64,000 nt of DNA from an uncultured Candidatus Peribacteria bacterium (GCA_964449445.1 CAYUZT010000003.1:110371-174370); one strand, 5' to 3'; positions 16,302-54,956 are shown, counted from the first letter of the stretch. The notes: generated by a model from the sequence alone, not told the origin. Numbers and translations are program-made.

Positions 16302-16988
16302 ATGAGCTCTATCACTGGATCATCCTCGGCGCGCTCCCTCCCGGGGACGATGCTGCTCGCCTCACTGGCGGTGATCACAGCCGCGGGCGTCATGGGAACT
16401 GCTCATGCAGAATCCGGAATTCTCGTCACGGTGACGTCGTCTTCTTCCAGCGCCCAGGCTTCCTCCGCAAGCAGTGATTCCGTTACTGAGGACGATACCG
16501 AAGAAGTCGCGAACATCAACAACAACGTAAATACGCAAACCGTCACGGTGACCTCCGGACAGCCCACGATTACCATCGGCGCTCCGACTATCAACGTCAC
16601 GACAGAAGCCGCTGCCGTCACGGCAACAGCAACAGCATCTCCGCTGCTCAACGGAACAGCCGGCGCAGCGCAGTATCCTCCGTTCCCTCCGTATCCCACC
16701 TACCCCCCGTATCCTTTTGCCCTTCCTCCGCAGGTGTTTCCCATTCCCCCGCCGCCTCCCGTCATCGCACAACCCTCTATCCCCGCCCCGGAGCCGTTAC
16801 CGCCATTCATTCAGCCGCTTCCCGTCACGGGAATTGAAGATTTCACGGGCCCTTTGGAAGATGTCCGTCGTTTTCTGAGGCCATTTTCTTCCTCGGGATC
16901 ATCGGTCCCGGGTGCCGGTCTTTGGACACTTATTGCTTGCCTCGGCCTCAGTATGGGAGGAATCCTGGGAAAGAAGTATCTCTCCTAA
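16302..16988 (+). CDS. surface protein P2: signal peptide, Ser-rich region, NVNTQ..VTVT module, Pro-rich region, LPVTG-type tail
   Basis: MSSITGSSSARSLPGTMLLASLAVITAAGVMGTAHA, NINNNVNTQTVTVTSGQPTITIGAPTINVTTEAAAVTATATASP, and YPPFPPYPTYPPYPF. The tail is PLPVTGIEDFTGPLEDVRRFLRP..KKYLS. Confidence 0.75.
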   Translation: MSSITGSSSARSLPGTMLLASLAVITAAGVMGTAHAESGILVTVTSSSSSAQASSASSDSVTEDDTEEVANINNNVNTQTVTVTSGQPTITIGAPTINVTTEAAAVTATATASPLLNGTAGAAQYPPFPPYPTYPPYPFALPPQVFPIPPPPPVIAQPSIPAPEPLPPFIQPLPVTGIEDFTGPLEDVRRFLRPFSSSGSSVPGAGLWTLIACLGLSMGGILGKKYLS

Positions 16989-17042: not shown

Positions 17043-18401
17043 ATGAAAAAGCGTTTCTCTCTCCTTACGGCCGTTCTCCTTCTCTCGGGACTTCTCCCTG
17101 GATTCGATGTCTTGGGAGCCGGCACCGCGGACCTCTGGATCAAGATGACACTGCCGCCACAGCTTGAACCGTTCAGTGATCCGGACGTTCCGCAGGAAAT
17201 CACCGTGATGAACGTCGGTTCGGAGACGGTTCCGGGAGCGACGGTCACCGAGATCATCCCTCCTGGACTGTCGTTTTTTCCCGCTGTCTCGCCCTCCTAC
17301 TGTTTGGCGAGCGCAGGGGTTGTCACCTGCACTCTGCCCTCGCTTGCTCCCGGACAATTCACGACGTTCATGTTGTACCTGCTCGCACCCCGAAACATGA
17401 CGTGCCCGTCGACGCTCACAAAGACCGTGACGGTCACAACCGTCGGGATCATCGACGTGAATTTGAGCAATAACACATCGACCGCGAGTGCGCTCATCAC
17501 CTGCCCCGTGAGCTCTTCTTCCTCCAGCAGTTCGCAGCCTCCTCTCGCAAAATGTCGGGACGGCATCGACAACGACGGTGATGGACTGATCGACTTCCCG
17601 GCTGACCCCGGATGCTCCAGCCTGCAGGACAATAGCGAATTGAACGGTACCGGGGGCTCCAACAACCAGAACAACAACGTGAATACACAGAACGTCACCG
17701 TCACAACGGCCGGGCAGACCATCACTATCCCATCGCCCAACATCAATGTGACAACGACGGCACCCGCCGTGAACGCCACGGCAACGGCTTCTCCATCGTC
17801 GACATTCGGTAACCCGGCAGGAGGAGGTTTCGGCCAGTATCCTCCTTATCCCCCGTACCCTCCCTATCCTCAGTACTCACCGTACCCGCAGTATCCGACT
17901 CCGTTCTCTGCGTATCCGTCGTACGCTCTCGGGAATCAGTATCCATCGTACATTCAGAACAATCAGTACCCGTCGTACATTCCGTACGGCCAGTACCCGC
18001 AGTATGGGCAGCCCTACTCACCCGCGTACTTCCCCTATCTGTCGACGAACGCCTATTTGAATGCCGCGCAATGCAGCGACGGTATCGATAACGACAACGA
18101 TGGCGCTGTCGATTACCCGCGTGATCTGGGCTGCGTGAGTCCTCAGGATAACAATGAAATCAACGACTACTTCTATGGAAACGCATCTGCCCCCCAGTGC
18201 CGCGATGGCATCGATAATGACCGGGACGGCACCGTGGACTACCCGAGGGATCTCAGCTGCAGTTCTCCCAATGACAATGATGAGAAGTACCCGCTCCCGC
18301 ATTGCTCCGACGGTATTGATAACGACGGGGACCGGCTCTTCGACTATCCGCGGGATCCGGGTTGTGTGAACCCCCGGGACAACAACGAAAGCCGACGCTG
18401 A
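17043..18401 (+). CDS. secreted protein P3: DUF11-like domain, 1+3 Cys/Asp repeats, NVNTQ module, Tyr/Pro-rich region; no LPVTG tail
   Basis: Signal peptide MKKRFSLLTAVLLLSGLLPGFDVLGA. Repeats at 17553-17639 and 18072-18389. YPPYPPYPPYPQYSPYPQYP low-complexity tract. Confidence 0.75.
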   Translation: MKKRFSLLTAVLLLSGLLPGFDVLGAGTADLWIKMTLPPQLEPFSDPDVPQEITVMNVGSETVPGATVTEIIPPGLSFFPAVSPSYCLASAGVVTCTLPSLAPGQFTTFMLYLLAPRNMTCPSTLTKTVTVTTVGIIDVNLSNNTSTASALITCPVSSSSSSSSQPPLAKCRDGIDNDGDGLIDFPADPGCSSLQDNSELNGTGGSNNQNNNVNTQNVTVTTAGQTITIPSPNINVTTTAPAVNATATASPSSTFGNPAGGGFGQYPPYPPYPPYPQYSPYPQYPTPFSAYPSYALGNQYPSYIQNNQYPSYIPYGQYPQYGQPYSPAYFPYLSTNAYLNAAQCSDGIDNDNDGAVDYPRDLGCVSPQDNNEINDYFYGNASAPQCRDGIDNDRDGTVDYPRDLSCSSPNDNDEKYPLPHCSDGIDNDGDRLFDYPRDPGCVNPRDNNESRR

Positions 18402-20402: not shown

Positions 20403-20468
20403 GAAGTCGAAGAGGTCGAGGAATCACACTCCTCGATTTCTTTGATTTCTTCTCTTTCCTCGATTTCC
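20403..20468. repeat. low-complexity hairpin element H1 (GAGGTCGAA-type units) between convergent P4 and pth
   Basis: Purine-rich arm GAAGTCGAAGAGGTCGAGGAATC, loop ACACT, pyrimidine-rich arm CCTCGATTTCTTTGATTTCTTC... The core is TCGAGG/CCTCGA. Outer mismatches are mostly G opposite T. Confidence 0.65.
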
Positions 20469-21780: not shown

Positions 21781-22416
21781 ATGCCCCGGATGAAGCTCCA
21801 AAAGCACGGATTCTGGTATCACCTCCTCGACGTTCTCTTCAATATCGTCGTGATCGTTGCGATCGTGGCGGCCATCCGCACATTCCTCGTCTCGCCGTTC
21901 CAGGTGGAGGGCAGTTCGATGATCGATACGCTCTACGACAAGGAGTACATCATCATCAATAAGTTCGCGTACCTTCTTGGGGAACCCTCGCGCGGGGACG
22001 TTGTGGTGTTCCGCCCTCCCAATGACCGGAAGAAGTACTACGTAAAACGCGTCATCGGCATGCCCGGCGATACCGTGACCATCAAGGACGGATTCGTGTT
22101 CGTCAAAACCCCCGGTGACGACGAGAGACACAAGCTGGAGGAAGCGGAGTACCTGAACTCGCGTAATCTGGGGAACACGTTCCGTCATCCTCCCAGCAGC
22201 GGCGACCGCACGGTGGTGACCTACGACGTTCCGGCAGGTCAGTACTTTCTGCTCGGAGACAACCGTCAGGGAAGCCTGGATTCCCGCAGTTTCACAGGTG
22301 ACGGCGGCAAGCAAACACCCTTCGTTCAGGAGAGCGACATCAAGGGTCGCGTGTGGTTCATTGCGCTCCCGATCACGAAGATTCATGCGCTGGAAGAGCC
22401 GGAGTACGGGCTATAA
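21781..22416 (+). CDS. lepB: signal peptidase I
   Basis: GSSMIDTL, GDVVVFRPP, YVKRVIGMPGDTV, GDNRQGSLDSR. An alternative in-frame ATG lies at 21721. Confidence 0.9.
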   Translation: MPRMKLQKHGFWYHLLDVLFNIVVIVAIVAAIRTFLVSPFQVEGSSMIDTLYDKEYIIINKFAYLLGEPSRGDVVVFRPPNDRKKYYVKRVIGMPGDTVTIKDGFVFVKTPGDDERHKLEEAEYLNSRNLGNTFRHPPSSGDRTVVTYDVPAGQYFLLGDNRQGSLDSRSFTGDGGKQTPFVQESDIKGRVWFIALPITKIHALEEPEYGL

Positions 22417-22420
22417 AAAA

Positions 22421-22547
22421 AGAATCCGACGACTCCGAGGAATCCGAAGAGTCCGAGGTCCAGACGGAAAAGGAGAACGGTAACTTTTCCTCGTTTCACT
22501 ATTTCCCACGCCAACTGGACCTTGGCATCTTCGGAATCTTTGGAGTC
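22421..22547. repeat. low-complexity hairpin element H2 (GGAnTCCGA units) between lepB and secE
   Basis: The 33-nt arms ending at 22463 and starting at 22515 are complementary at 27 of 33 positions by my count. The loop is about 51 nt. Confidence 0.7.
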
Positions 22548-22637
22548 TTTTTTAACGTAAATTTCCCTTGCAGCAGTTCTGATTTCCTGTAACATAAGTA
22601 CGGCCCCTGAGGGCTTTTTTCTTTAGTCTTTCGAACC

Positions 22638-22833: not shown

Positions 22834-23379
22834 ATGGGCAAACAGGATCCCCGGGCAGGACGGAATTGGTATGTCCTGCACACGTACTCCGGCTACGAAG
22901 ACAGCGTCAAACAGGCGCTTGAGCAACGGGTGGAATCGCTCGGCATGCAGGATTACATTTTCTCGGTCATGGTCCCCAAGGAGAAGCAGCTCGTGTTCAA
23001 AAAGGGCGAGCCGGTGGAAGAGGAAAAAAAGTTGTTTCCCGGATACGTCCTGGTCGACATGATCGTGACGGATGAATCGTGGTACGTCGTCCGCAATACC
23101 CCCAATGTCACCGGTTTCGTCGGCTCCGGAAACATTCCCGTCGCTGTGAGCCCGGAAGAATTCGGCGTCATCGAGCGGCGCATCGGCGAAGAGCAAGCGA
23201 AGTTCAGGAGCGACTTCCAGGTAGGCGATCTGGTGATCATCATCGACGGGCCGTTCAAGAACTACGAAGGCTCCGTGCAGAGCGTGGATGTGAATAAAGG
23301 AAAGCTCAACGTTGCCGTCCTCATTTTCGATCGTGAGACGCCGGTTGAGTTGGACTTCACGCAGGTAAAAAAGAAATAG
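22834..23379 (+). CDS. nusG: transcription termination/antitermination factor NusG
   Basis: WYVLHTYSGYEDSV, LFPGYVLVDM, VRNTPNVTGFVG, and KOW segment GDLVIIIDGPFKNYEGSV. Start at the internal ATG at 22834. Confidence 0.95.
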   Translation: MGKQDPRAGRNWYVLHTYSGYEDSVKQALEQRVESLGMQDYIFSVMVPKEKQLVFKKGEPVEEEKKLFPGYVLVDMIVTDESWYVVRNTPNVTGFVGSGNIPVAVSPEEFGVIERRIGEEQAKFRSDFQVGDLVIIIDGPFKNYEGSVQSVDVNKGKLNVAVLIFDRETPVELDFTQVKKK

Positions 23380-23495
23380 GACTCCGAGGATTCCAAAGAT
23401 TCCAAGGACCAGTTGGAAAGGTCGTAATAAACTGCAGAAAATCTGCGATTCTCGGTATACATCTGGACCTTGGACTCTTCGGAATCTTTGGAATC
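23380..23495. repeat. low-complexity hairpin element H3 (same family as H2 and H9) between nusG and acyP
   Basis: Arms GGACTCCGAGGATTCCAAAGATTCCAAGGACCAG and CTGGACCTTGGACTCTTCGGAATCTTTGGAATC are complementary at 27 of 33 positions by my count. 50-nt loop. Confidence 0.75.
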
Positions 23496-23520
23496 TTTTG
23501 GATTGTTCTATCATACCCTC

Positions 23521-25255: not shown

Positions 25256-27712
25256 ATGAGCGACAGTGCCGTGAAGGAATCGCTCAAAAAATACTCGATT
25301 GGTTTGACGATCGAGGAAGCACGCAAGATCGAAACGCTGTTGGGACGCGCACCGACGGTTGTGGAAGCAGTTATATGGGGAATCCAGGGAAGCGAACACA
25401 GTAGCTACAAATCGTCCCGCAGGTTTCTAAAGATGTTTCCAACGACAGGAAAACACGTGATTCTCGGGCCGAAAGAAGATAGTGGAATCGTCGCACTCAC
25501 GGACGGGCCGCCCGGCAAGCGCTGGGGCATTGTGGTCAGCCATGAATCGCACAATCACCCCTCGCAGATCGTCCCCTTTGAAGGAGCAGCAACGGGAGTC
25601 GGCGGAACCGTTCGCGATGTCGCGTGCATGGGCGCGCGGGTCGTCGGGTGCATGGATATGCTGCGACTGGGTGACCTCAAGACGGCGGAGACGCGCAGCA
25701 TTGCGAAGGAAGTGATGCGCGGGATTGGAGGCTATGGAAATCCGCTCGGAGTTCCGAATCTCGGTGGTGATACGGTCTTCGACGCCGGGTTCAACAGTAA
25801 CTGTCTGGTCAATGCTATTGCGATCGGGATCGTCCGGGAAGACGAGGTGATCCATAGCGAAGTGCCCGAGGAGGCGGCCCGCGAAGGATACGACCTGATC
25901 ATTGTCGGAAAGCCGACGGACAGAAGCGGCTTCGGCGGTGCGGCGTTTGCGAGCGTGAGCATGGAGGAAGAGAAGAAGGAACAGAACAGCGGCGCAGTGC
26001 AGGAACCCAACCCCTTCCTGGAACGCCATTTGCTCGTCTCGACCTACGCGCTGTTCGACTGGCTCGCGGAGTCCAAAAACCTCCATCGCGTGAGCTTCAA
26101 GGATCTGGGCGCTGGAGGCGTCGTCTGCTCAACTGTGGAACAGGTGTCCGGACGCAACTTTGGTGCCGATGTGGAACTGGCGAGCGTCCACGTATCCATC
26201 CCCAATCTTCCTCCGGAAGTGATCGCCTGCGCCGAAACGCAGGAACGCTTCTGCTGGGCGGTGCATCCCTCACTCACGGGTCACATCCTGAAGCATTACA
26301 ACGTCGACTGGGATCTCCCGAGCGTTGCAGAACACGCCCGCGCCAGCGTGGTCGGGAAGGTGAATGGTTCGGGAATCTATCACCTGACGCATAACGGCGT
26401 GACCGTCTGCAAAGCAAAGTCGCAGGACATCACGTCTGGGCTTCAATACACCAGACCGACGAAGTTGAACGAACCAAAACGAGAAGAGCCTCATATCAGT
26501 TGTGATCAAACTGGAGAGATACGAGTTAACGAGTTAACGAATCAACGAGTCTTCACTACAACGATCACTCAAATCTTCCGCTCGATGCTCGCTCACCCCA
26601 ATCACGCCTCAAAATCCCGCGTCTTCCGCCACTACGACAAAACCGTCATCGGCAATACGATCGTCGAGGCCGGCGAAGCCGATGCATCGGTGATCATGCC
26701 CCTGAGAGACTTGCCCTCGTATCTCCCGGGAGGATCGCATCCTGATTGGAAGCTCTCCGCGAAAGAAGAAATTGTGGGAGCGGTCTTCGCGGCCGATGGG
26801 AATCCGCGCTACGGACGGATCTCTGCGTACTGGCAAGGAGTGCTTGCGGCCGTCGAATCCATGATGAACGTCGTGGCAACGGGAGCGACTCCGCGCGCAC
26901 TCACCGATTGTCTCAATTACGGCAATCCCGAAATCCCCGGGCACCTCGCGGCTCTGGAAGCGGGCGTGAAGGGGATCAGTGATGCGGCACGCGCGATCAC
27001 ATTTGATGGAGAGGGTGTGCCCGTGATCTCCGGGAACGTCAGCCTCTACAATTCCCTTCCCGATGGGAATTCCATTCCCCCATCGGCGATTGTCTGCACC
27101 ATCGGCGTGATTCCCGATGCGCGCAGAGGCCTCACCATGCAGGTGGAACACTCCGGGTCACGTCTTTTCCTCATTGGTGAGCGAAAAGATGAATGCGGCG
27201 GTTCCGCCTACTACGAAGTACTGGAACAGATGTGCGGAGCGGAGCGCGACGCATTGCTGGGATCATCGCTTCCAAAACCAGATTTCGCCGACGTGACCAA
27301 GCAGATGCAGCTCGTCATCAATGCGTGCGCGAAGGACCTTCTCCTGTCGTGTCATGACATCAGCGATGGCGGACTCCTCCTCGCACTCTTCGAAATGCTC
27401 CTCCCACGACGCAAGCTCGGCGGCACATTGGGGGTGGACATAGACCTCGCGTTGCTCACGAGTTCCCTGAGTGCCGACAAACTTCTGTTTTCACAAACGC
27501 CGGGATTCATCGTGGAGATCGCCCCCACTCACGTGCAGGCGTTCACAACACTAAGTGAAACGCATGACATGCAGGTAGCAGACATCGGAGCCGTGAACGG
27601 GGGTGGGAAACTCACGATCATGCATGGCAAACACTCAGTCCTCTCCGAGCATATCGTTGGTCTTCGAGAAACCTGGGAGCGCTCATTAACGGAAGTATTG
27701 GACAAACGTTGA
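25256..27712 (+). CDS. purL: phosphoribosylformylglycinamidine synthase subunit PurL
   Basis: LTIEEARKIETLLGRAPTVVEAVIWGIQGSEHSSYKSS, ESHNHPS, and GGYGNPLGVPNLGG. Start at the internal ATG at 25256. Confidence 0.9.
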   Translation: MSDSAVKESLKKYSIGLTIEEARKIETLLGRAPTVVEAVIWGIQGSEHSSYKSSRRFLKMFPTTGKHVILGPKEDSGIVALTDGPPGKRWGIVVSHESHNHPSQIVPFEGAATGVGGTVRDVACMGARVVGCMDMLRLGDLKTAETRSIAKEVMRGIGGYGNPLGVPNLGGDTVFDAGFNSNCLVNAIAIGIVREDEVIHSEVPEEAAREGYDLIIVGKPTDRSGFGGAAFASVSMEEEKKEQNSGAVQEPNPFLERHLLVSTYALFDWLAESKNLHRVSFKDLGAGGVVCSTVEQVSGRNFGADVELASVHVSIPNLPPEVIACAETQERFCWAVHPSLTGHILKHYNVDWDLPSVAEHARASVVGKVNGSGIYHLTHNGVTVCKAKSQDITSGLQYTRPTKLNEPKREEPHISCDQTGEIRVNELTNQRVFTTTITQIFRSMLAHPNHASKSRVFRHYDKTVIGNTIVEAGEADASVIMPLRDLPSYLPGGSHPDWKLSAKEEIVGAVFAADGNPRYGRISAYWQGVLAAVESMMNVVATGATPRALTDCLNYGNPEIPGHLAALEAGVKGISDAARAITFDGEGVPVISGNVSLYNSLPDGNSIPPSAIVCTIGVIPDARRGLTMQVEHSGSRLFLIGERKDECGGSAYYEVLEQMCGAERDALLGSSLPKPDFADVTKQMQLVINACAKDLLLSCHDISDGGLLLALFEMLLPRRKLGGTLGVDIDLALLTSSLSADKLLFSQTPGFIVEIAPTHVQAFTTLSETHDMQVADIGAVNGGGKLTIMHGKHSVLSEHIVGLRETWERSLTEVLDKR

Positions 27713-30305: not shown

Positions 30306-30320
30306 GTAACTATGCTATGG

Positions 30321-30407
30321 AAAGGAGGCAAGGGAGGCAAAGGAGTCAGGAGAGACAAAGGAGAATTTTTCTTTTGCCTCTTTTGCCTCTTTTGTCTCTT
30401 TTGACTC
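30321..30407. repeat. low-complexity hairpin element H4 (GAGGCAAAG units) in the murC/ftsB-like divergent region
   Basis: Purine-rich arm AAAGGAGGCAAGGGAGGCAAAGGAGTCAGGAGAGACAAAGGAG, loop AATTTTT, pyrimidine-rich arm CTTTTGCCTCTTTTGCCTCTTTTGTCTCTTTTGACTC. The pairing register is ambiguous. Confidence 0.7.
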
Positions 30408-30433
30408 ACATTCCCTCTCTCTATCCTGTCGCC

Positions 30434-31504: not shown

Positions 31505-32212
31505 ATGGCTGAAATGGGCGGTCTCGAAATCGGCACACCAGGAGAAGGCGGCTCAGGAGCTCCTGAGCAACTGAGTGAAGAAGCCAAGCAGCGCTTTGCA
31601 GCGGCTGCGGCTGCGATGGCAGCAATCCAACGCGAGGAGAAACGCAGCAAGAAGCGCGATACGCGTGTTGCCCGTACTATCATCCAGTTCCTCAACGACG
31701 ATCGCTTCGCGCACCTCTTCGTCCTCATTTCGCGGCTAGTGGCACGAGACTGTCCGTCGGTCTTCATCCTCGCGATCCTCTCCCTGATCAATGAGGATTG
31801 TCGCACGGTCGTAAAGGAGTACCTGGAGGAGGTGAAGCAGGAAATGAAGGATGCTTCAGCAGACATCGTGACGGATGACATGAACGTCATGGAAGGCGGA
31901 TCGATTGATGCCAAGACCAATAGCATTCTGATTTCCTGGATCACGCGCATGCAGATGGTCATGGCACTCGAAGCGCAGAAGATTCTCGAAAAGCTCATGA
32001 TCGATCAGCACAATATCGACGGAACGGTCTTACAGCTCACTACATTCATTCTTCAGGAGTTCTTCGCATCGGAATCCGGCGGACGCAGAAAAGCTCCATT
32101 CGAATCGTTGCAAGGACTCTCCGTGAGTATTCTCCAGACGGTCTTTGAGCCGTTCCTGGATCTCGTAGACCTGCCAAGTAAACGGGAGGAAGGAAAAGAA
32201 AATGACGAGTAA
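31505..32212 (+). CDS. hypothetical protein
   Basis: ORF 31487..32212. The ATG at 31505 is preceded by TATCAT-ACCCTC, a 17-nt string identical to the one at the acyP start. No recognisable domain. Confidence 0.45.
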   Translation: MAEMGGLEIGTPGEGGSGAPEQLSEEAKQRFAAAAAAMAAIQREEKRSKKRDTRVARTIIQFLNDDRFAHLFVLISRLVARDCPSVFILAILSLINEDCRTVVKEYLEEVKQEMKDASADIVTDDMNVMEGGSIDAKTNSILISWITRMQMVMALEAQKILEKLMIDQHNIDGTVLQLTTFILQEFFASESGGRRKAPFESLQGLSVSILQTVFEPFLDLVDLPSKREEGKENDE

Positions 32213-32305
32213 GAGGCAAAGGAGGCAAGAGAGATAAAAGAGGCAAGGGAGTTTTGTTTTCAGACCTCTTTTTCCTCCTTTGCCTCACTTGCCTCTCTTG
32301 TCTCC
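32213..32305. repeat. low-complexity hairpin element H6 (same GAGGCAAAG family as H4)
   Basis: GAGGCAAAGGAGG (32213-32225) is the exact reverse complement of CCTCCTTTGCCTC (32274-32286). The right arm supplies the last codons and stop of thpR. Confidence 0.7.
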
Positions 32306-32845
32306 TTCAAAAAGGAAGTTCTGCAACGCCGTCTGCTTCACCCCATTCACTTCCGCGTACAACCTGACTCGATCCACTTTCATCTCAAACTCCACGTCAT
32401 CAATCAGCTTCATGATCTTCTTCTTGTGCACAGCAAACTTCTGCGGATGTTTGATGCGTGCGAGCGTGATGTGAGGAGAAAATGACTCAATTGAGGGCCA
32501 CGGGCAGCGCTTCTTGAGCCGCGCGAGTTCGTCGCTGAAGGGAATATCCAGATAGAGCACCCGATCCTCGCCTCGCGAGCCGAACGTGGAGACTCCCTGC
32601 ACCTTGAGAGTGAAGGGAGAGGACGTATCGGCGATCTTCTTACTCTGCGGAATGATCTGGTAGTACTCAATCTCCATCACTTCTTTCCAGAATTGGAGCG
32701 TGAGGTGAGGTGACTGCGGGTTCTGGAAACGGAAGATGTTTTCGAATTCTTGCAGACGCGCTTGAAGTTCCTGAAATGCATTCTTCGCCTGACCTTCCAA
32801 GGGAATTGCAAGGAAGGCAGAGTGCAGCGGAAAATGAAGGTACAT
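32285..32845 (-). CDS. thpR: RNA 2',3'-cyclic phosphodiesterase (2H family, ThpR/LigT)
   Basis: Two HxTx motifs: PHLTLQF and PHITLAR. Confidence 0.8.
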   Translation of the reverse strand: MYLHFPLHSAFLAIPLEGQAKNAFQELQARLQEFENIFRFQNPQSPHLTLQFWKEVMEIEYYQIIPQSKKIADTSSPFTLKVQGVSTFGSRGEDRVLYLDIPFSDELARLKKRCPWPSIESFSPHITLARIKHPQKFAVHKKKIMKLIDDVEFEMKVDRVRLYAEVNGVKQTALQNFLFEGDKRGK

Positions 32846-35764: not shown

Positions 35765-35797
35765 CTGGTCCTCGGACTCTTCGGAGTCTTCGGACTC
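35765..35797. repeat. solo arm (H7) of the H2/H3/H9 family between the convergent cupin gene and pdxS
   Basis: CTGGTCCTCGGACTCTTCGGAGTCTTCGGACTC. Confidence 0.6.
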
Positions 35798-35802
35798 TGT
35801 CA

Positions 35803-37168: not shown

Positions 37169-37192
37169 GGAATCATTGTACACTGACTTCCG

Positions 37193-40086: not shown

Positions 40087-41397
40087 ATGGTGACGAAGAT
40101 CTCTCCTGTCGCGCAATCCGCCCCTCTTGCCTACCGCCTGAGGCCACGGACGCTCAGCGAGTTCATCGGACAAGAAGACGTCGTCGGACCGGATACGCCG
40201 CTCAAGATAGCGATTGAACGGGATCAATTGAGTTCGGCAATCCTTTCCGGACCGCCCGGCACCGGGAAAACCACGCTCGCGCATGTGATCTCCAATATCA
40301 CCGAAGCCCAGTTCGTGCAGGTGAACGCCGTCACGAGCGGCGTGAAGGAACTGAAGGAAATTTGCGCGCATGCCGAGGAACTGCTGAAGAACCTGAAGCA
40401 GCGGACGGTCCTCTTCATCGATGAAATCCACCGGTTCAACCGCTCCCAGCAGGATGCGCTCCTTCCATCCGTGGAAAACGGCAGCGTGATCCTCATCGGC
40501 GCGACGACGCAGAATCCCTACTTCGATGTGAATGCCGCGCTGATTTCCCGTTCGCAGGTGGTGTTGCTAAAGCCTCTCACCATCGAGAACCTCACGGCCA
40601 TTTTGAGAAACGCTCTGGACGATGAACGCGGATTTGCCGGAAACGTGAAAGCAGATGATGCGGTTCTTGAACGCATTGCCCATGTTGCCAATGGCGACGC
40701 GCGCATCGCGCTCAATACGCTGGAGCTGACCATCATGACCGCGGGCAAGAAGCTGACCGTCCAAAACGCCGAGAAAATCCTCCGCCAGAAATCCCTGCGG
40801 TACGATAAATCCGGCGAGGACCATTACAACGTGATTTCCGCGTTCATCAAATCGATGCGCGGATCGGATCCCGATGCCGCGCTCCTCTGGATGTTTCGGA
40901 TGCTCCAGAGTGGCGAAGATCCGCGCTTCATCTTCCGCCGCATGGCGATCTTCGCGTCGGAGGACGTCGGCAATGCCGATCCACGAGCGCTCCAAATGGT
41001 CATCAGCGCGTGGCAGGCGTTTGAACTCGTCGGTCTGCCCGAAGGAGAATTCTTTCTTGCGCACGCATGCGTCTATGTCTCTCAAGCGCCCAAGAGCAAT
41101 GCCGTCACGCGCGCGATGGGAGCCGCAAAACACGCAATGCTCCAGTCCCCCACTCTGGAAGTCCCGAATCACTTGAGGAATGCTCCTGTCAAAGGGATGA
41201 AAGAGCAGGGGTACGGAGTGAATTATGAATATCCGCATAATCACGAGGGAGCAGTCGTCGCCGCCAATTACTTCCCGGTCGGGATGGAGACGCAGAATTT
41301 CTATGAGCCATCGGATCGGGGATTTGAGGCCGATGTGCGCAAGCGAATGCAAGACGTGAAAGCCAAAATTCGGAAAGTGCCGGTCGCAAAGGTGTAG
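40087..41397 (+). CDS. rarA: replication-associated recombination protein A (AAA+ ATPase)
   Basis: LAYRLRPRTLSEFIGQEDVVG, SGPPGTGKTTLA, LFIDEIHRFN, GATTQNPYF, HYNVISAFIKSMRGSDPDAALLW. Confidence 0.9.
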   Translation: MVTKISPVAQSAPLAYRLRPRTLSEFIGQEDVVGPDTPLKIAIERDQLSSAILSGPPGTGKTTLAHVISNITEAQFVQVNAVTSGVKELKEICAHAEELLKNLKQRTVLFIDEIHRFNRSQQDALLPSVENGSVILIGATTQNPYFDVNAALISRSQVVLLKPLTIENLTAILRNALDDERGFAGNVKADDAVLERIAHVANGDARIALNTLELTIMTAGKKLTVQNAEKILRQKSLRYDKSGEDHYNVISAFIKSMRGSDPDAALLWMFRMLQSGEDPRFIFRRMAIFASEDVGNADPRALQMVISAWQAFELVGLPEGEFFLAHACVYVSQAPKSNAVTRAMGAAKHAMLQSPTLEVPNHLRNAPVKGMKEQGYGVNYEYPHNHEGAVVAANYFPVGMETQNFYEPSDRGFEADVRKRMQDVKAKIRKVPVAKV

Positions 41398-41408
41398 CAT
41401 AGGCCCCC

Positions 41409-43604: not shown

Positions 43605-43605
43605 T

Positions 43606-43698
43606 TTTAGCTGGTTAGCTTTTTAGCTTTTTAGCTTATAGAAGGGAAAATCTTTTCACGCTAAGCTAACAAGCTCACAAGCTAAGAAGCTCGCAAGA
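43606..43698. repeat. low-complexity hairpin element H8 (TAGCTT units) between priA and the aquaporin gene
   Basis: Arm TTTTAGCTGGTTAGCTTTTTAGCTTTTTAGCTTAT, a 20-nt loop, then arm GCTAAGCTAACAAGCTCACAAGCTAAGAAGCTCGCAAG. Confidence 0.7.
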
Positions 43699-44791: not shown

Positions 44792-46038
44792 ACCATCAGG
44801 CGTTCAAGCGTGCTTGCGTGAGGATTTGCGAAGACCTCAAGTAATTCTGATGAACACAATTCTTGATCAGATATATCCTCTATCCCATAAGCTATTCCTG
44901 TTTCACTTCCCTTTCCAAAAGCACCTGCACCGGTATCGGGAATATCCCTGCGCAGCAGGATGACCTTCGAGAGAGAAGACCCGAGCGATTGCTCAGACTT
45001 TGTTATCGCATTCCACCCTTTCCATTCCCCGCCTCTGCGAATGATCGCGCGTTCCTTGTTCGCGTTGAAGACCGTCAGGTCCGAAAGAACGTTTGCAACG
45101 GAAGAATCTGGAACGCTGAAGTACTTCCATTGTTTCAGTGTGAGTGACGGAGCAACTCGCCTCGCCGCTTGCTCCACCGTTCGCTCTTCGTTATTGGTGA
45201 TGATGGTTTCAATAAAAATCTCTGCTTCTTTGGGTTTCCGAGAAGGTAGTTCAATTTTTTGAGAAGAAGTCGTCGGTCCCGTTGGTCCCCTCTGTCCCCT
45301 CGGTCCCCTCTCAATCCACTGCTTCATCGACGCAAAGTACGCATCTCCTCTGCCTTGAGCCCTCTCGGGATGCGGCATCAGCGCAATCACATTGCCCGCA
45401 GGATTACAGATGCCCGCAATCGCGAGCATGGAGCCGTTCGGTGTAATGAGAGGATCTTCACTGACGCTTCCGGCAGCGTCACAGTAGGAGAATGCGATCT
45501 GATCATTCTTCTTCAACTCCTGGATGAGGTCTCTGTCTCTCGTTGTGAACCTTCCCTCACCGTGGGCAATGGGAATCTGCATCACGCCATCCCAATGACT
45601 CGTCGCGCATCGGTCTTTTGTACAGGTACGGGTGATCCAGATCCATTCGCTGAGGAGCGGCAGCCCCTGGATTCCCTGCTGCGTCTTGATAGCGTTGCGC
45701 GCAAGGCTCATCTCCAGACCCTCTCCATAGGGAATCAATCCGCTTTCCACCAGCACCTGTGCGCCATTGCAGATCCCAATCACTACTTTACCTTCATCTG
45801 CTTCCACGCGGATGAAGTCCATCAACGGATCACGCGCTGCAACCATTCCGCTGCGACCACGATCTTCGTACGCAAACCCACCGGGGATAAAATACCCGTC
45901 AATGTCTGTGAGGAGCTTGCGGTCATCATTCCACCGGAAGAACACCGGTTCCATGCCATTCCTCCGTATGACGCGCATCGATTCGACCTCCCCGTTGTTT
46001 CCGGGAAAAGAGACGATGGCGATGCGGGGGGTGCGCAT
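44788..46038 (-). CDS. purQ: phosphoribosylformylglycinamidine synthase I (PurQ glutaminase) fused to a C-terminal PurS-like region
   Basis: [31 protein letters not shown]. After a [12 protein letters not shown] linker comes a tail of about 150 aa ending [17 protein letters not shown] (PurS-like). TACACT lies 6 nt upstream of the ATG. Confidence 0.75.
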
Positions 46039-46075
46039 GACCGAAGTGTAGCAGAAGGAATTATTGACCAAGAAA

Positions 46076-46202
46076 GGACTCCGAGGATTCCGAGGATTCC
46101 GAAGAGTCCGAGGACCAGTTGGCAATATTGTTATCTAGCGGGAAGAAGTTCGCGATTCTCGGTGTACATCTGGACCTTGGCATCCTCGGAATCTTTGGAA
46201 TC
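46076..46202. repeat. low-complexity hairpin element H9 (same family as H2/H3) between frr and purQ
   Basis: The 33-nt arms are complementary at 26 of 33 positions by my count. The 3' half of the loop, GCGATTCTCGGTGTACAT, matches H3. Confidence 0.75.
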
Positions 46203-46741
46203 TAAATTTTCATAACTTCTTCCTCCTTCTTCTTCGCCATCTCCGCAATCTTCCCATTGTAGTCATCGACGGCCTTCTGCAATTCCTGATTGAGCGTTTC
46301 CTTCACATCTTCAGCTTTCTCCGGCTTGATCGCATCATGGGCAACCTGGCGGTGCTTGCGAAGAGTCACACGCGCTTCTTCGGCAAGCTGATGGACCACC
46401 TTCTGGAGGTGCTTGCGCCGCTCTTCGGTCATGGAGGGGAGTGTGACGCGGATGACGACCCCGTCATTGACCGGCGATGCTCCGAGATCGGCTTGCGACA
46501 GGGCTTTTTCGACAGCAGCGAGGATCGAACGGTCCCACGGCGCTACGATGATCGACCGCTGATCAACGCTAATGCCGCAGAGCGACCGCAAATCCTGCTT
46601 CTGGCCGTAGGCATCCACCATGATGTGCTCCACGAGCGCGGCGTTCGCCCGCCCAGTCTGGAGCCTGCTGAATTCATTGCGGAGGCTCGCGAGGACTTTG
46701 TCGGCTTCCGCGTGAAATGTGGCAATGCGAGAATCGATCAT
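46202..46741 (-). CDS. frr: ribosome recycling factor
   Basis: LRNEFSRLQTGRANAALVEHIMVDAYG and LPSMTEERRK. Confidence 0.95.
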   Translation of the reverse strand: MIDSRIATFHAEADKVLASLRNEFSRLQTGRANAALVEHIMVDAYGQKQDLRSLCGISVDQRSIIVAPWDRSILAAVEKALSQADLGASPVNDGVVIRVTLPSMTEERRKHLQKVVHQLAEEARVTLRKHRQVAHDAIKPEKAEDVKETLNQELQKAVDDYNGKIAEMAKKKEEEVMKI

Positions 46742-47170
46742 AGGAATTAGGAGTTAGGAATTTAGGAAAGACTACGGATAAGACCATTCATCATTCTCAT
46801 TACTTCATCCAGCAAAGCATCTACCTTGATAAAATTCAAGGCACGACCGAACGGCAATTTTTTGACAATTATGACTTGTGTTTCGAGTTCTGAGCCCGAT
46901 CCAAATGCTATACGAACACATCGTCTGAATTCTTCTCTTGATGAATTTTTCCTACCTTCTGCAATATTGCTCGGAATTGAAACCACACAACTTCTCATTT
47001 GAGAAGTTAGACCGTATTGCTCAGATTGTGGGAACTTCTCGGTCAGTTCATAGACTGCATCTACAAGCTCCACTGCTTTTTGCCAGACAATAAGATCTTT
47101 ATAGGACTTAATAACCATAGGACGGATGATTCTACACCCGATTCCTAATTTCCTAATTCCTAGCATCCTA
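46742..47170. mobile_element. 429-bp cassette: four-helix-bundle gene bracketed by TAGGAAT-unit inverted arms, filling the whole pyrH-frr spacer
   Basis: Arm AGGAATTAGGAGTTAGGAATTTAGGAAAG (46742-46770) starts 1 nt after the frr start codon. Arm ATTCCTAATTTCCTAATTCCTAGCATCCTA (47141-47170) ends on the pyrH stop codon. Confidence 0.6.
46762..47118 (-). CDS. four-helix-bundle protein (23S rRNA intervening-sequence protein family)
   Basis: MVIKSYKDLIVWQKAVELVDAVYELTEKFPQSEQYGLTSQMRSCVVSIPSNIAEG...F.....A.GS..E..TQ. Start at the internal ATG. Confidence 0.8.
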   Translation of the reverse strand: MVIKSYKDLIVWQKAVELVDAVYELTEKFPQSEQYGLTSQMRSCVVSIPSNIAEGRKNSSREEFRRCVRIAFGSGSELETQVIIVKKLPFGRALNFIKVDALLDEVMRMMNGLIRSLS

Positions 47171-47869
47171 ATGGACGACTGTTCCAATCTTCTCGCCCTT
47201 CGCCGCTTTCAACAATGCTCCGGGTTTAAAGAAGTTGAACACGACGATCGGCAGCTTCTGATCCTGGCAGAGGCTGAATGCCGCCTGATCCATGATGTTT
47301 AAGTGCTGGGCCATGGCGTCCTGGTAGGTGATCTCGTCGTACTTTTTGGCGCTGCGGAAGCGCTTGGGATCCTTGTCGTACACGCCGTCCACGTTGGTCG
47401 CCTTCAGGAGAACATCGCATCCCAGTTCCAATGCCCGCAGTGCGGCGGCGGAATCGGTAGTGAAATAGGGGTTTCCCGTGCCTCCCGCGCAAATGACCAC
47501 TCTCCCCTTCTCCAGATGCCGCTGAGCTTTGCGCTTGATGAAGGGTTCCGCGAGCTGCGGGATATCGATCGCGGAGAGCACGCGTGTGTGGGTTCCGGCG
47601 TTTTCCAGCGCCGACTGGAGCGCGACGCTATTCATGATCGTCGCGAGCATGCCCATCGCGTCGCTCACGGTGCGCTCAATGCCGGAATCTTTCGTGTCGC
47701 GATAGCGCCAGATATTGCCTCCTCCCACGACGACGACCACCTGCGCGTGCGCGGCGACGGCCGTGATCTGTTTGGCGACGTGCGTTAAGGTCGGCCGGTC
47801 GATGCCGAAGTTATGCTTTCCGGAAAAAACTTCGCCCGAGAGCTTGAGCATGATGCGTTTGTACGGCAT
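47168..47869 (-). CDS. pyrH: UMP kinase
   Basis: YKRIMLKLSGEVF, VVVGGGNIWR, and GGTGNPYFTTDSAAALRA. Confidence 0.95.
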   Translation of the reverse strand: MPYKRIMLKLSGEVFSGKHNFGIDRPTLTHVAKQITAVAAHAQVVVVVGGGNIWRYRDTKDSGIERTVSDAMGMLATIMNSVALQSALENAGTHTRVLSAIDIPQLAEPFIKRKAQRHLEKGRVVICAGGTGNPYFTTDSAAALRALELGCDVLLKATNVDGVYDKDPKRFRSAKKYDEITYQDAMAQHLNIMDQAAFSLCQDQKLPIVVFNFFKPGALLKAAKGEKIGTVVH

Positions 47870-49013: not shown

Positions 49014-49035
49014 CGCGGCAGTGTAGACTGATTCC

Positions 49036-53263: not shown

Positions 53264-54178
53264 TCAGATGTTGAGTATGGCACGAAATCTCGCGCTTCGC
53301 GAGCGGGGATTGCGCCTAATTTCTTCTGGAGAGGGCTTCTTGGCCTTTGGCGTCAGCAGTTTCCAGGGGGCGCTGACGGCAATTTGCCCTGTCCGTGGAT
53401 CGAGTTCCGGGGTTGTCAGGGAACGGAACGTTTGCTTTACCAGACGGTCTTCCAGGGAATGATAACTGATGATTCCGACGCGTCCGCCGTGTGTAAGGAC
53501 GTCAGGGAGAATGCTGAGGAGCGATTTGAGCGCACCCAGCTCATCGTTCACGACAATGCGCAGCGCCTGGAAGATTTGTGGCAGAACATGCGGGGCGCGG
53601 TAGCGGAAGACGGCCTCGACACACTCAACCACATCGTCGGTTTTCCACTCCGACAGGGAACGTGACGCAGAGTGGAAGTGGCGACGGAGTTCCTGCGCGA
53701 GAATCCTGCTGCGCGGAATCTCGGCGAATTCCTTCAGGACCTCCGCGATCCGATCTTCCGACGAAGAGAGCAGGAACTCAGCCGCGGTCTGTCCGGAACT
53801 CCGGTCGTAGCGCAGGTCGAGCGGCGCGGAAGCACGGAACGAAAATCCCCTCTCTGGATCATCCAGGTGCGGCGAGCTGAGGCCGAGATCGGCGAAGAGA
53901 ATGTTCACCTGCATCGGTAGCAGTGTATGAAGGTCACCGAAGTTCATTCGGTGAAGGGTCACACGTTCTCCGTATGGAGCAAGTCGCTTCCGTGCTGCCT
54001 CCAGATTGATCTCGTCGGCATCCAGGCCGATCAGCTGACCATCGGGATTCACCGCAGCAAGGAACGCCGCTGCATGACCACCCAGACCCAGCGTTGCATC
54101 GAGGACACTCTCACCGGGTGTTGGGACGAGGGTCTGAAGGACGTCGGTTTCAAGGACCGGAACATGTCTGTCTTGCAT
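53264..54178 (-). CDS. rsmH: 16S rRNA (cytosine1402-N4)-methyltransferase
   Basis: HVPVL, DATLGLGGHA, DLGLSS, ISYHSLEDR. The ATG is preceded by TAAAAT and 6 nt. Confidence 0.9.
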   Translation of the reverse strand: MQDRHVPVLETDVLQTLVPTPGESVLDATLGLGGHAAAFLAAVNPDGQLIGLDADEINLEAARKRLAPYGERVTLHRMNFGDLHTLLPMQVNILFADLGLSSPHLDDPERGFSFRASAPLDLRYDRSSGQTAAEFLLSSSEDRIAEVLKEFAEIPRSRILAQELRRHFHSASRSLSEWKTDDVVECVEAVFRYRAPHVLPQIFQALRIVVNDELGALKSLLSILPDVLTHGGRVGIISYHSLEDRLVKQTFRSLTTPELDPRTGQIAVSAPWKLLTPKAKKPSPEEIRRNPRSRSARFRAILNI

Positions 54179-54365
54179 TCGCAAATTTTACGCACGGACA
54201 GCGAAACGGCAACGGTTTTGCCTTGCTGATTCATGAGGATGTTTCTTGTATACAAAAAATATTCAATGTGCCATTTTCTATTGACACCAAAATGGTGATT
54301 TGAACCTTATTTAAGCCATTTTATGGCATATTGCTTTCTTAAAAATATCTATTATTATATACATC

Positions 54366-54956
54366 TTGCTCAAAAATTCCTGGATCATTTTCGGCCTTCT
54401 CGCGGGGCTCATTTGGCTCCCCGCAGGAGTGGATGCAGAGAACCTCGCTCCGGTCGCATGGGAACCCGAACCCGGCGATGCGTTCGTCGTCGATGTGCCT
54501 GCGAACATGGGGTATCTGGTGCACCGAAACGGGCAGTCATTCTCCTTTCCTGTCGCAACTGGCAAGAAGGCATACGTACGCTACATCGGGAGGGGTTACC
54601 GCGCGGAGACGCCGATCCGCTCCTGGACAGCAGAGCAGAAGCAGGTGAAGGGTGACCGCCGGACCTTCGGCGTCAGCGGACGGTTCATCCGGCTCTTCCG
54701 CGGCGGTGAAAATTCCCCGTACGGGATTCATGCGTACTACAAAGAAAAGGATTGGCTGGAGGCCAAGGAACGCTACTTCTCCATGGGATGCATCATCGTG
54801 ACGGAAACGATGATGGATATCATCGAGAAGACGTACGATCTCAGTAAGAACTCCCTTGCGGTCATCACTACGGACAACCTTGAAGTGACTCTCCAGAAAA
54901 TTACTCACAACATAGCAGTTCAGAATGAGGAAAACGCGTTGGCAGTCGTTCCCTGA
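54366..54956 (+). CDS. possible L,D-transpeptidase (YkuD-like) domain protein
   Basis: Signal peptide. YGIHAY...FSMGCIIV resembles the H...S.GC(I/V) catalytic motif. TTG start. Confidence 0.45.
   Translation: MLKNSWIIFGLLAGLIWLPAGVDAENLAPVAWEPEPGDAFVVDVPANMGYLVHRNGQSFSFPVATGKKAYVRYIGRGYRAETPIRSWTAEQKQVKGDRRTFGVSGRFIRLFRGGENSPYGIHAYYKEKDWLEAKERYFSMGCIIVTETMMDIIEKTYDLSKNSLAVITTDNLEVTLQKITHNIAVQNEENALAVVP

Follow-up and report, generated by a model that had tools for sequence, protein, structure and literature searches.

A four-helix-bundle gene between inverted TAG-heptamer arrays separates pyrH from frr in a Candidatus Peribacteria genome: a probable intervening-sequence-type cassette outside rRNA

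The genes for UMP kinase (pyrH) and ribosome recycling factor (frr) are normally adjacent, with spacers of only 15–66 nt in most close relatives of the organism considered here. What, then, occupies the 426 bp between them in an uncultured Candidatus Peribacteria bacterium, and how might an essential gene pair tolerate it? We addressed this question in a 64,000-nt stretch of its DNA (GCA_964449445.1 CAYUZT010000003.1:110371-174370), hereafter the window. The pyrH-frr spacer (46742-47167) is one compact low-GC unit, with a GC content of 0.39 against 0.57–0.59 in the flanking genes and 0.55 across the window. It holds a conserved gene for a four-helix-bundle (4HB) protein, with what appears to be its own -10 box, inside inverted arrays of TAG-containing 7-mers. 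With a probability of about 60%, we read it as a hairpin cassette of the kind known as an intervening sequence (IVS) in rRNA, here placed outside rRNA. Comparison with relatives bears out the proposal of an initial annotation that the whole spacer is one inserted unit, and only some of the Peribacteria lineages have the cassette at this junction. The same layout, between co-directional genes, holds for most of 87 sampled homologues of the 4HB gene.

All coordinates of the initial annotation, among them those of the 4HB open reading frame (ORF), were confirmed. The features, all on the minus strand, are listed below; the arms are written in transcription sense.

46202..46741, minus strand: frr, ribosome recycling factor, downstream flank (PF01765, E 1e-46)
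46739..46741, minus strand: frr start codon, within the predicted stem base (minimum-energy structure of 46732-47180, minus strand)
46742..46770, minus strand: 3' arm, CTTTCCTAAATTCCTAACTCCTAATTCCT, including the 4HB stop TAA (sequence, repeat finder, tandem-repeat finder TRF, RNA fold)
46762..47118, minus strand: 118-aa 4HB gene with ATG start and TAA stop (PF05635 / TIGR02436; GC 0.39)
47129..47138, minus strand: -10-like box GGTGTAGAAT (TG + TAGAAT), 10 nt 5' of the 4HB ATG, kept in the related loci L007, L008 and L126
47141..47170, minus strand: 5' arm, TAGGATGC TAGGAAT TAGGAAAT TAGGAAT, a tandem 7-8-mer array (TRF period 7; inverted repeat I3/I9/I10; closing RNA helix)
47168..47170, minus strand: pyrH stop codon TAG, the first unit of the 5' arm (sequence)
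47168..47869, minus strand: pyrH, UMP kinase, upstream flank (PF00696, amino-acid kinase family, E 3e-37)

As numbered along the window, arm AGGAATTAGGAGTTAGGAATTTAGGAAAG begins at 46742, adjoining the frr start codon, and arm ATTCCTAATTTCCTAATTCCTAGCATCCTA fills 47141-47170, its final three bases being the pyrH stop codon. Read in the sense of transcription, the 5' end of the cassette runs pyrH...CAT TAG GATGC TAGGAAT TAGGAAAT TAGGAAT C, the middle GGTGTAGAAT catccgtcct ATG (4HB start), and the 3' end 4HB ...AGT CTT TCC TAA ATTCCTAACTCCTAATTCCT ATG (frr), so that the final base of the 3' arm directly precedes the frr ATG. Both arms stand where the initial annotation had placed them. Its picture of gene and arms in succession needs one correction, however, as the 4HB stop TAA (46762-46764) lies inside the 3' arm, and gene and arm overlap. 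The neighbours of the 4HB gene are DUF4870, pyrH, frr, amidotransferase and SpoU genes. An Rfam scan of the window returned five tRNAs and nothing else. A second low-GC island, at 54050-54550, was considered as another cassette and is a divergent promoter region.

The arms form a long inverted repeat in which 46748-46768 and 47142-47162 are 90% complementary over 21 nt, and TRF resolves both as tandem 7-mers (TAGGAAT x3.9 and ATTCCTA x3.0). That they pair better than shuffled controls, as had been predicted, was borne out in two ways. The duplex of the two 50-nt ends has an energy of -36.1 kcal/mol, compared with -20.5 ± 3.8 kcal/mol when the 3' arm is replaced by its dinucleotide shuffles (z -4.1; none of 1000 was as good). 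In the minimum-energy fold of the 449-nt RNA spanning 46732-47180 (minus strand; -130.7 kcal/mol, z -3.78, 0 of 100 shuffles), the arms form the closing helix across the 373 nt that separate them. A terminal stem of 23 bp is retained in the consensus fold of three orthologous cassettes. The absolute duplex energy is not discriminating when the 5' arm is set against all 50-nt windows of the 64 kb, because GC-rich windows elsewhere also reach -33 to -36 kcal/mol; weight is therefore placed on contiguous complementarity, on the closing-helix fold and on recurrence across genomes. Neither arm contains a terminator-like site, and scans for canonical -35/-10 promoters and intrinsic terminators found nothing relevant. 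A role of the heptamers in closing all three reading frames was also considered. It requires exact 7-nt spacing, but the TAGs in the window are spaced 8, 7 and 8 nt and close only two frames; the third runs open into the 4HB ORF and produces a falsely extended 141-aa ORF with a TTG start.

A protein search with frr retrieved 32 loci, the nearest from Candidatus Peribacteria (Peregrinibacteria, Candidate Phyla Radiation, CPR), whose frr is 78–88% identical to that of the window and whose pyrH is 82–88% identical. The order DUF4870-pyrH-frr-amidotransferase is conserved among them. Besides the window, the genomes with a 4HB gene between pyrH and frr are L007, L008 and L126/L127, whose 4HB proteins are 75%, 76% and 81% identical to that of the window; the gene is absent at this junction from L005, L006, L009-L013 and L015-L021, whose spacers measure 15–138 nt. 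L005 and L006, the closest relatives, have a spacer of 16 nt with no hairpin. L006 carries a 60%-identical 4HB cassette in a different place, its frr-purQ spacer (L006:4538-5013), with arms TAGTTTT / AAAACTA. All Peribacteria cassettes found, including this copy, have inverted tandem arms and a GC content of 39–41%. The junction comparison suggested at the outset has thus yielded a patchy presence, with complementary arms in every carrier. Sporadic among relatives and lodged in another spacer in one of them, the cassette is, on this comparative evidence, mobile on evolutionary time, in line with the first interpretation.

Filled and empty sites also differ at the pyrH C-terminus, which reads ...GTVVHG followed by TGA or TAA in cassette-free genomes and ...GTVVH followed by TAG in the window and L008. 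Among carriers, pyrH ends in ...H, ...HA or ...RS before the arm TAG, so the boundary is not uniform; the arm therefore supplies the stop codon and, in the window and L008, replaces the last codon. The carriers do not form a clade, as L007 groups with the cassette-free L010, L009 and L013 at ~0.8 bootstrap (neighbour-joining, pyrH+frr+purQ). We found no recombination mosaics in the carriers' pyrH 3' or frr 5' ends, no target-site duplication on comparing filled with empty sites, no transposase near the cassette and no identical second copy (the 64 kb hold one copy). Heptamer-like arrays were also seen directly 5' of the pyrH start in L005 (L005:3220-3279, TTTTCAC x4), L010 and L011, and the DUF4870-pyrH spacer may likewise hold tandem-repeat elements in relatives.

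The encoded protein belongs to the family that had been named for it, that of the 23S rRNA IVS proteins, which was discovered in Leptospira rRNA in 1993. It scores 114.6 bits against PF05635 (cut-off 33.8), with residues 7-112 aligned to profile positions 1-106, and 107.5 bits against TIGR02436 (cut-off 24). The family motifs W-Q, P..E..G...Q, SIPSNIAEG and S..ELE are all present, and the protein agrees with every column that is invariant when 30 sequences are aligned. Among solved structures, the nearest is 2GSC, Xanthomonas XCC0516 (E 1e-22, residues 6-116), and similarity to it suggests a homopentameric four-helix-bundle fold. Against orthologues, dN/dS of the 4HB gene is 0.06–0.08, similar to pyrH and frr, and the protein is under purifying selection. 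Its closest homologue among the matches listed, P0002, is 86% identical. Many homologues from other CPR phyla are 62–70% identical, while frr is only 40–48% identical to that of non-Peribacteria relatives; conservation across phyla beyond that of frr, together with the low GC of 0.39, gives the gene a foreign character. A scan with PADLOC defence-system models matched 0 families at E ≤ 0.01.

The -10-like box is conserved 8–10 nt 5' of the 4HB ATG: TGTAGAAT in the window corresponds to TGTAATAT, TGTATAAT and TGTACAAT in orthologues, and the conserved block reads GGTGTAATAT in L007, GGTGTATAAT in L008 and TGTACAAT in L126. The motif TG(n)TAnnnT followed after 5–10 nt by ATG precedes an ORF of at least 100 codons in 13 of its 16 matches in the window, against 23% of all ATGs. 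This suggests that promoters in this Peribacteria lineage lie directly before the starts, with mostly leaderless or near-leaderless mRNAs. A plain pyrH-frr operon mRNA is accordingly an assumption, since many genes look individually promoted and leaderless. Cassette-free relatives have an frr -10 box in the spacer; no comparable box was seen in the 3' arms of carriers. Further examples of the box in the window lie at 46039-46053 (purQ-like), 41391-41408 (priA), 37176-37192 and 49022-49035, beside that of the 4HB gene (47119-47136). Pyrimidine tracts, with no Shine-Dalgarno sequence, precede start codons that have the box, and the box-before-ATG layout upstream of purQ is conserved in relatives. 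A small hairpin, CGGGUG-UAGAAU-CAUCCG (47119-47140, minus strand), displays the 4HB box in its loop; two compensatory changes preserve it in L007 and L008.

How general is this layout? At least 7,937 homologues were found at E ≤ 1e-10 among 8,000 candidates scored, making PF05635 a very large family. A scan of metagenome contigs added 80 loci, and the statistics that follow cover 87 distinct 4HB genes. Four homologues examined individually stand in tight, co-directional arrangements: rpiB-[4HB]-rpe, ABC ATPase-[4HB]-FtsX, alaS-[4HB]-pgi and mraZ-[4HB]-rsmH. In each, a (TAGNNNN)n array opens with the TAG that terminates the upstream gene, and the complementary (NNNNCTA)n array stops a few bases before the next ATG. 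Over the 87 genes, the 60 nt upstream contain a mean of 3.2 TAGs, compared with 0.37 inside the ORF, and of ~200 intervals between neighbouring upstream TAGs, 115 measure exactly 7 nt. A co-directional ORF ends no more than 150 nt upstream in 65 of 78 loci, and another starts no more than 150 nt downstream in 61 of 68. Of those 65 upstream ORFs, 47 (72%) terminate with TAG, a stop used by 24% of the other long ORFs at these loci (p 2e-16).

Pairing of the arms recurs as well. Duplexes of arms from the same locus have a median energy of -33.4 kcal/mol, compared with -23.1 kcal/mol for cross-locus pairs (p 2e-14), and the median best ungapped stem is 11 against 6. TAG is the most frequent periodic trinucleotide of the arrays, and the loci, 284 kb in total, contain 121 TAG-heptamer arrays, of which 76 adjoin a 4HB gene. 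The units differ by copy and site (TAGGAAT, TAGTTTT, TAGCTTN, GGTTAGT and others), and identical heptamers are commoner between more similar proteins, the observed correlation being reached in 0 of 500 permutations. No rRNA was found at any of the 87 homologues, by Rfam on 19 loci and by the co-directional ORFs on both sides at the rest. The rRNA copies of the family appear to be a special case, its usual home in the sample being a hairpin between co-directional protein genes, with arms of TAG-containing heptamers of which the first is the stop codon of the upstream gene.

Related hairpins without a 4HB gene were also observed in these loci. Small PDDEXK_3 (PF13366) genes stand in the same inverted bracket between co-directional genes at L037:1297-1704 and L040:4654-5061; the L040 stem is perfect over 29 bp, and this looks like a second cargo type of the cassette architecture. 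Gene-less (TAGNNNN)n/(NNNNCTA)n hairpins occur at L039:2457-2517 and L007:3636-3705, several times in L051, and in L085, L075 and L066. They share the 4HB-arm units of their own genome and span from the stop codon to just before the next ATG.

The window itself contains other repeat elements. A dispersed hairpin element of ~130 bp has three copies, all in plus orientation (22415-22562, 23370-23506 and 46068-46208), with 9-mer arms GGATTCCGA / TTGGAATCT around a core, CATCTGGACCTTGG, that is conserved; columns of their alignment are on average 79% identical, and the core pattern occurs 3 times where 0 are expected. One copy begins at the frr stop codon, beside the cassette, and the frr-purQ spacer holds a gene-less hairpin (46074-46203). 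Short-tandem-repeat hairpins with periods of 8–9 and differing units are found at 20403-20450, 30320-30410, 32210-32310 and 43605-43697; each begins 0–14 nt past a stop codon, convergent genes flank several of them, and a U tract is missing from all. Single tandem arrays occur at 35772-35798 and 26521-26550. Other tandem repeats are coding. The 9-nt unit TCGGTCCCC is repeated x4.2 at 45273-45310 within a 416-aa GATase_5 gene and encodes a Gly/Pro/Arg-rich linker from the amidotransferase domain to a C-terminal extension, and repeats of period 9/18/27 rich in CAGTACCC (16673-16715 and 17834-17999) presumably encode Pro/Tyr/Gln-rich low-complexity segments.

How the insertion could be tolerated is suggested by the fold. 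In read-through transcripts from pyrH, the arms would pair into a stem of ~23–29 bp, with the 4HB gene looped out and the frr start hidden in the paired region. At least 90% of CPR genomes keep RNase III (PMC12641178), and this enzyme may then cut the double-stranded stem as it does in the 23S rRNA copies of Coxiella and Leptospira. The cassette would thereby be lost from the message, pyrH and frr would end up on RNAs of their own, and we propose that this is why an essential gene pair can accommodate the insertion. Transcripts from the cassette's own predicted promoter would carry the 4HB gene and frr and lack the 5' arm. Because no frr box was seen in the carriers' 3' arms, frr mRNA would be supplied by transcripts that run through the cassette, started either at the 4HB -10 box or from pyrH.

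Several observations weigh against this account. Apart from two nodes, the pyrH+frr+purQ tree is poorly resolved, and dS has reached saturation in every species comparison, so that one ancient gain with many losses looks the same as repeated gains and the cassette is not datable. Every exact 4HB variant that was looked up sits at a single genomic site, with no sign of recent transposition. As the predicted 4HB -10 box lies 3' of the 5' arm, transcripts starting from it would form no stem. No RNase III gene lies within the 64-kb window, and cleavage of this stem is put forward by analogy. The mismatches in the stems give a mixed answer. In a lenient ungapped alignment, G:U-type and A:C-type mismatches are equally common (44 and 46), with no signal. 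Isolated mismatches within solid helices, under a strict definition and with events that are not independent, number 17 of the G:U type against 2 of the A:C type, and a per-locus sign test gives 9 against 2 (p 0.065). The pattern is only suggestive of an RNA-level role of the stems, and with a test this weak there is room for a DNA-level origin of the arm complementarity.

Such an origin is the core of one rival explanation, in which the cassette is a mobile element at the DNA level: the heptamer arrays would be terminal inverted repeats, or hairpin or cruciform recombination sites for a trans-acting factor, and RNA pairing would be incidental. An accessory part might fall to the 4HB protein, which is related to Avd, a protein that binds nucleic acids. 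The patchy distribution and the second spacer occupied in L006 fit this view, as do the low GC, the homologues across phyla that are better conserved than housekeeping genes, the lack of strand asymmetry in the lenient mismatch count, and the long-standing proposal that IVSs are remnants of transposition (PMC4990558). The three copies of the 130-bp family indicate, moreover, that hairpin elements have spread in this genome. We nonetheless consider it unlikely: filled and empty sites reveal no target-site duplication, no transposase is nearby, each protein variant looked up is confined to one site, and the strict count within helices favours sense-strand G:U. Arm sequences also vary between copies and sites, with no fixed recognition sequence. 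A different history makes the hairpin a host feature in which the gene has settled. Hairpins of tandem repeats would serve this lineage as punctuation after stop codons (3'-end formation, stability or translational coupling), and the 4HB gene would have entered the loop of an existing pyrH-frr hairpin, as IVSs replace tetraloops in rRNA. At least seven gene-less tandem-repeat hairpins follow stop codons by 0–14 nt in the window, several of them between convergent genes and one directly 3' of frr; others occupy the orthologous spacers of L005, L012, L015 and L031, and those of other CPR loci use the 4HB-arm units of their own genome. This history is quite doubtful, however, because 8-9-mers, most of them lacking TAG, make up the gene-less hairpins of the window, and the cassette arms consist instead of TAG 7-mers of the kind that flanks 4HB genes in unrelated genomes. 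Arrays of that kind mostly adjoin a 4HB gene, their units follow the 4HB phylogeny across different sites, and the 16-nt spacers of the closest cassette-free relatives hold no hairpin.

Two simpler ideas fare far worse. Diversity-generating retroelements (DGRs) are common in CPR, and the locus could be a remnant or component of one with the gene as Avd. PF05635 is homologous to Avd (PMC10053308). The gene matches the Avd-specific models weakly, at 28.5 bits for PF22296 (bAvd) and 27.1 bits for NF033474 (DivGenRetAVD), both below their cut-offs of 40 and 80. Neither a reverse transcriptase nor a template/variable repeat pair was found within several kb, here or at the other loci examined, and a retroelement is effectively refuted at this locus. 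Chance complementarity of two AT-rich simple repeats would draw on the low complexity of the arms, which pair in several registers, and on the GC-rich windows that match the absolute duplex energy. It is refuted by recurrence: besides the shuffle scores (z -4.1 and -3.8), the bracket returns in four orthologous carriers, with another 7-mer at a paralogous site and, judged against cross-locus controls, in the majority of the 87 unrelated homologues.

With the IVS-type hairpin cassette as the favoured reading, the interpretation first offered for this locus is, as a whole, partly supported. A much bolder proposal, which we regard as improbable when taken jointly, would treat inverted TAGNNNN-heptamer hairpins as a general intercistronic punctuation in CPR and other bacteria. 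Each would stretch between the stop codon of one gene and a point shortly before the start of the next, and its cleavage as double-stranded RNA would free mRNAs with a short leader or none. The loops of processed stems, whether in rRNA or between genes, would house PF05635 and PDDEXK_3 genes as specialised residents. In its boldest version, a pentameric 4HB ring would bind the 4–5 UAG units of its own 5' arm, one per subunit, resembling TRAP on (G/U)AG repeats, and would decide whether the stem forms, hence the expression of its own gene and of the downstream gene, here the essential frr.

The favoured reading links rRNA intervening sequences, the intergenic heptamer repeats of Xanthomonas and Nostoc, and stand-alone Avd-like genes, and it gives a testable model of double-stranded RNA processing between cistrons in bacteria with leaderless mRNAs. 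It also offers a signature for annotating such cassettes that guards against false extended ORFs such as the 141-aa TTG ORF. The 23S rRNA IVS copies are already known; in the full-text literature searched, to which this statement is confined, we found no description of the architecture outside rRNA or of the family-wide rule.

Long double-stranded stems cut by RNase III between cistrons are familiar from phage T7 early mRNAs and several bacterial operons, where cutting separates the messages. The cassette shares the stem with them, but T7-type hairpins are local, with a gene-less loop and no tandem heptamers. With the Avd proteins of DGRs, the 4HB protein shares a homologous four-helix-bundle fold, pentameric in solved members; unlike them, it is not accompanied by a reverse transcriptase or template/variable repeats, and its Avd scores are below cut-off. 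Repetitive extragenic palindromic (REP) elements and REPINs, and MITEs (miniature inverted-repeat transposable elements), are likewise short intergenic inverted-repeat elements, dispersed and patchy. The cassette differs from them in having a conserved gene and tandem-repeat arms that change between copies, and no REP-associated transposase (RAYT), other transposase or target duplication was seen for it.

Closer parallels are the intergenic heptamers GGGAATC of Xanthomonas and GGGGAYT of Nostoc, which often form convergent inverted pairs (Rehm et al. 2015, PMC4692102). Like the arms of the cassette, they are tandem 7-mers in inverted pairs that vary in length and sequence between close relatives; their units, however, are G-rich and not TAG-based. 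That study treats the repeats as G-quadruplex formers and draws no link to 4HB genes (PMC4692102). Its supplement lists a four-unit GGGAATC-type array in X. campestris (622956-622983) between accB (XCC0517) and XCC0516 (PMC4692102), the gene of the closest solved homologue, 2GSC, and the association of heptamers with 4HB genes thereby reaches beyond CPR.

The nearest known system is the 23S rRNA IVS (Coxiella helix 45, Leptospira; PMC4990558), and the resemblance to the RNase III-processed IVS of Coxiella burnetii, anticipated by the initial annotation, extends to the tandem heptamers. The Coxiella IVS measures 428–444 nt, has terminal inverted repeats that pair into a closing stem of 28 bp, and contains three or four tandem heptamers GACAGAT, their number varying between strains, just before an S23p (PF05635) ORF (PMC4990558). 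Its GC content is below that of the genome, and RNase III excises it at mid-stem (PMC4990558). In both systems, a sense-oriented gene from one and the same protein family sits in the loop of a unit of ~430 nt with a terminal inverted-repeat stem of more than 20 bp, and both share the heptamers just upstream of the ORF, the low GC and the sporadic occurrence among relatives. They part in location, as an IVS is defined by its rRNA gene (23S helices 9, 25 or 45, or 16S) and the cassette lies between protein genes, where one arm gives the upstream stop codon and the other abuts the next start. The Coxiella ORF is decaying and probably untranslated, whereas that of the window experiences strong purifying selection and possesses a -10 box of its own; RNase III cleavage is demonstrated in Coxiella and would be expected here by analogy. 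We accordingly file the element, at the same probability of about 60%, as an IVS-type cassette outside rRNA and not as an IVS: a unit of the rRNA kind whose arms, in place of interrupting a structural RNA, end one protein gene and lead directly into the next.

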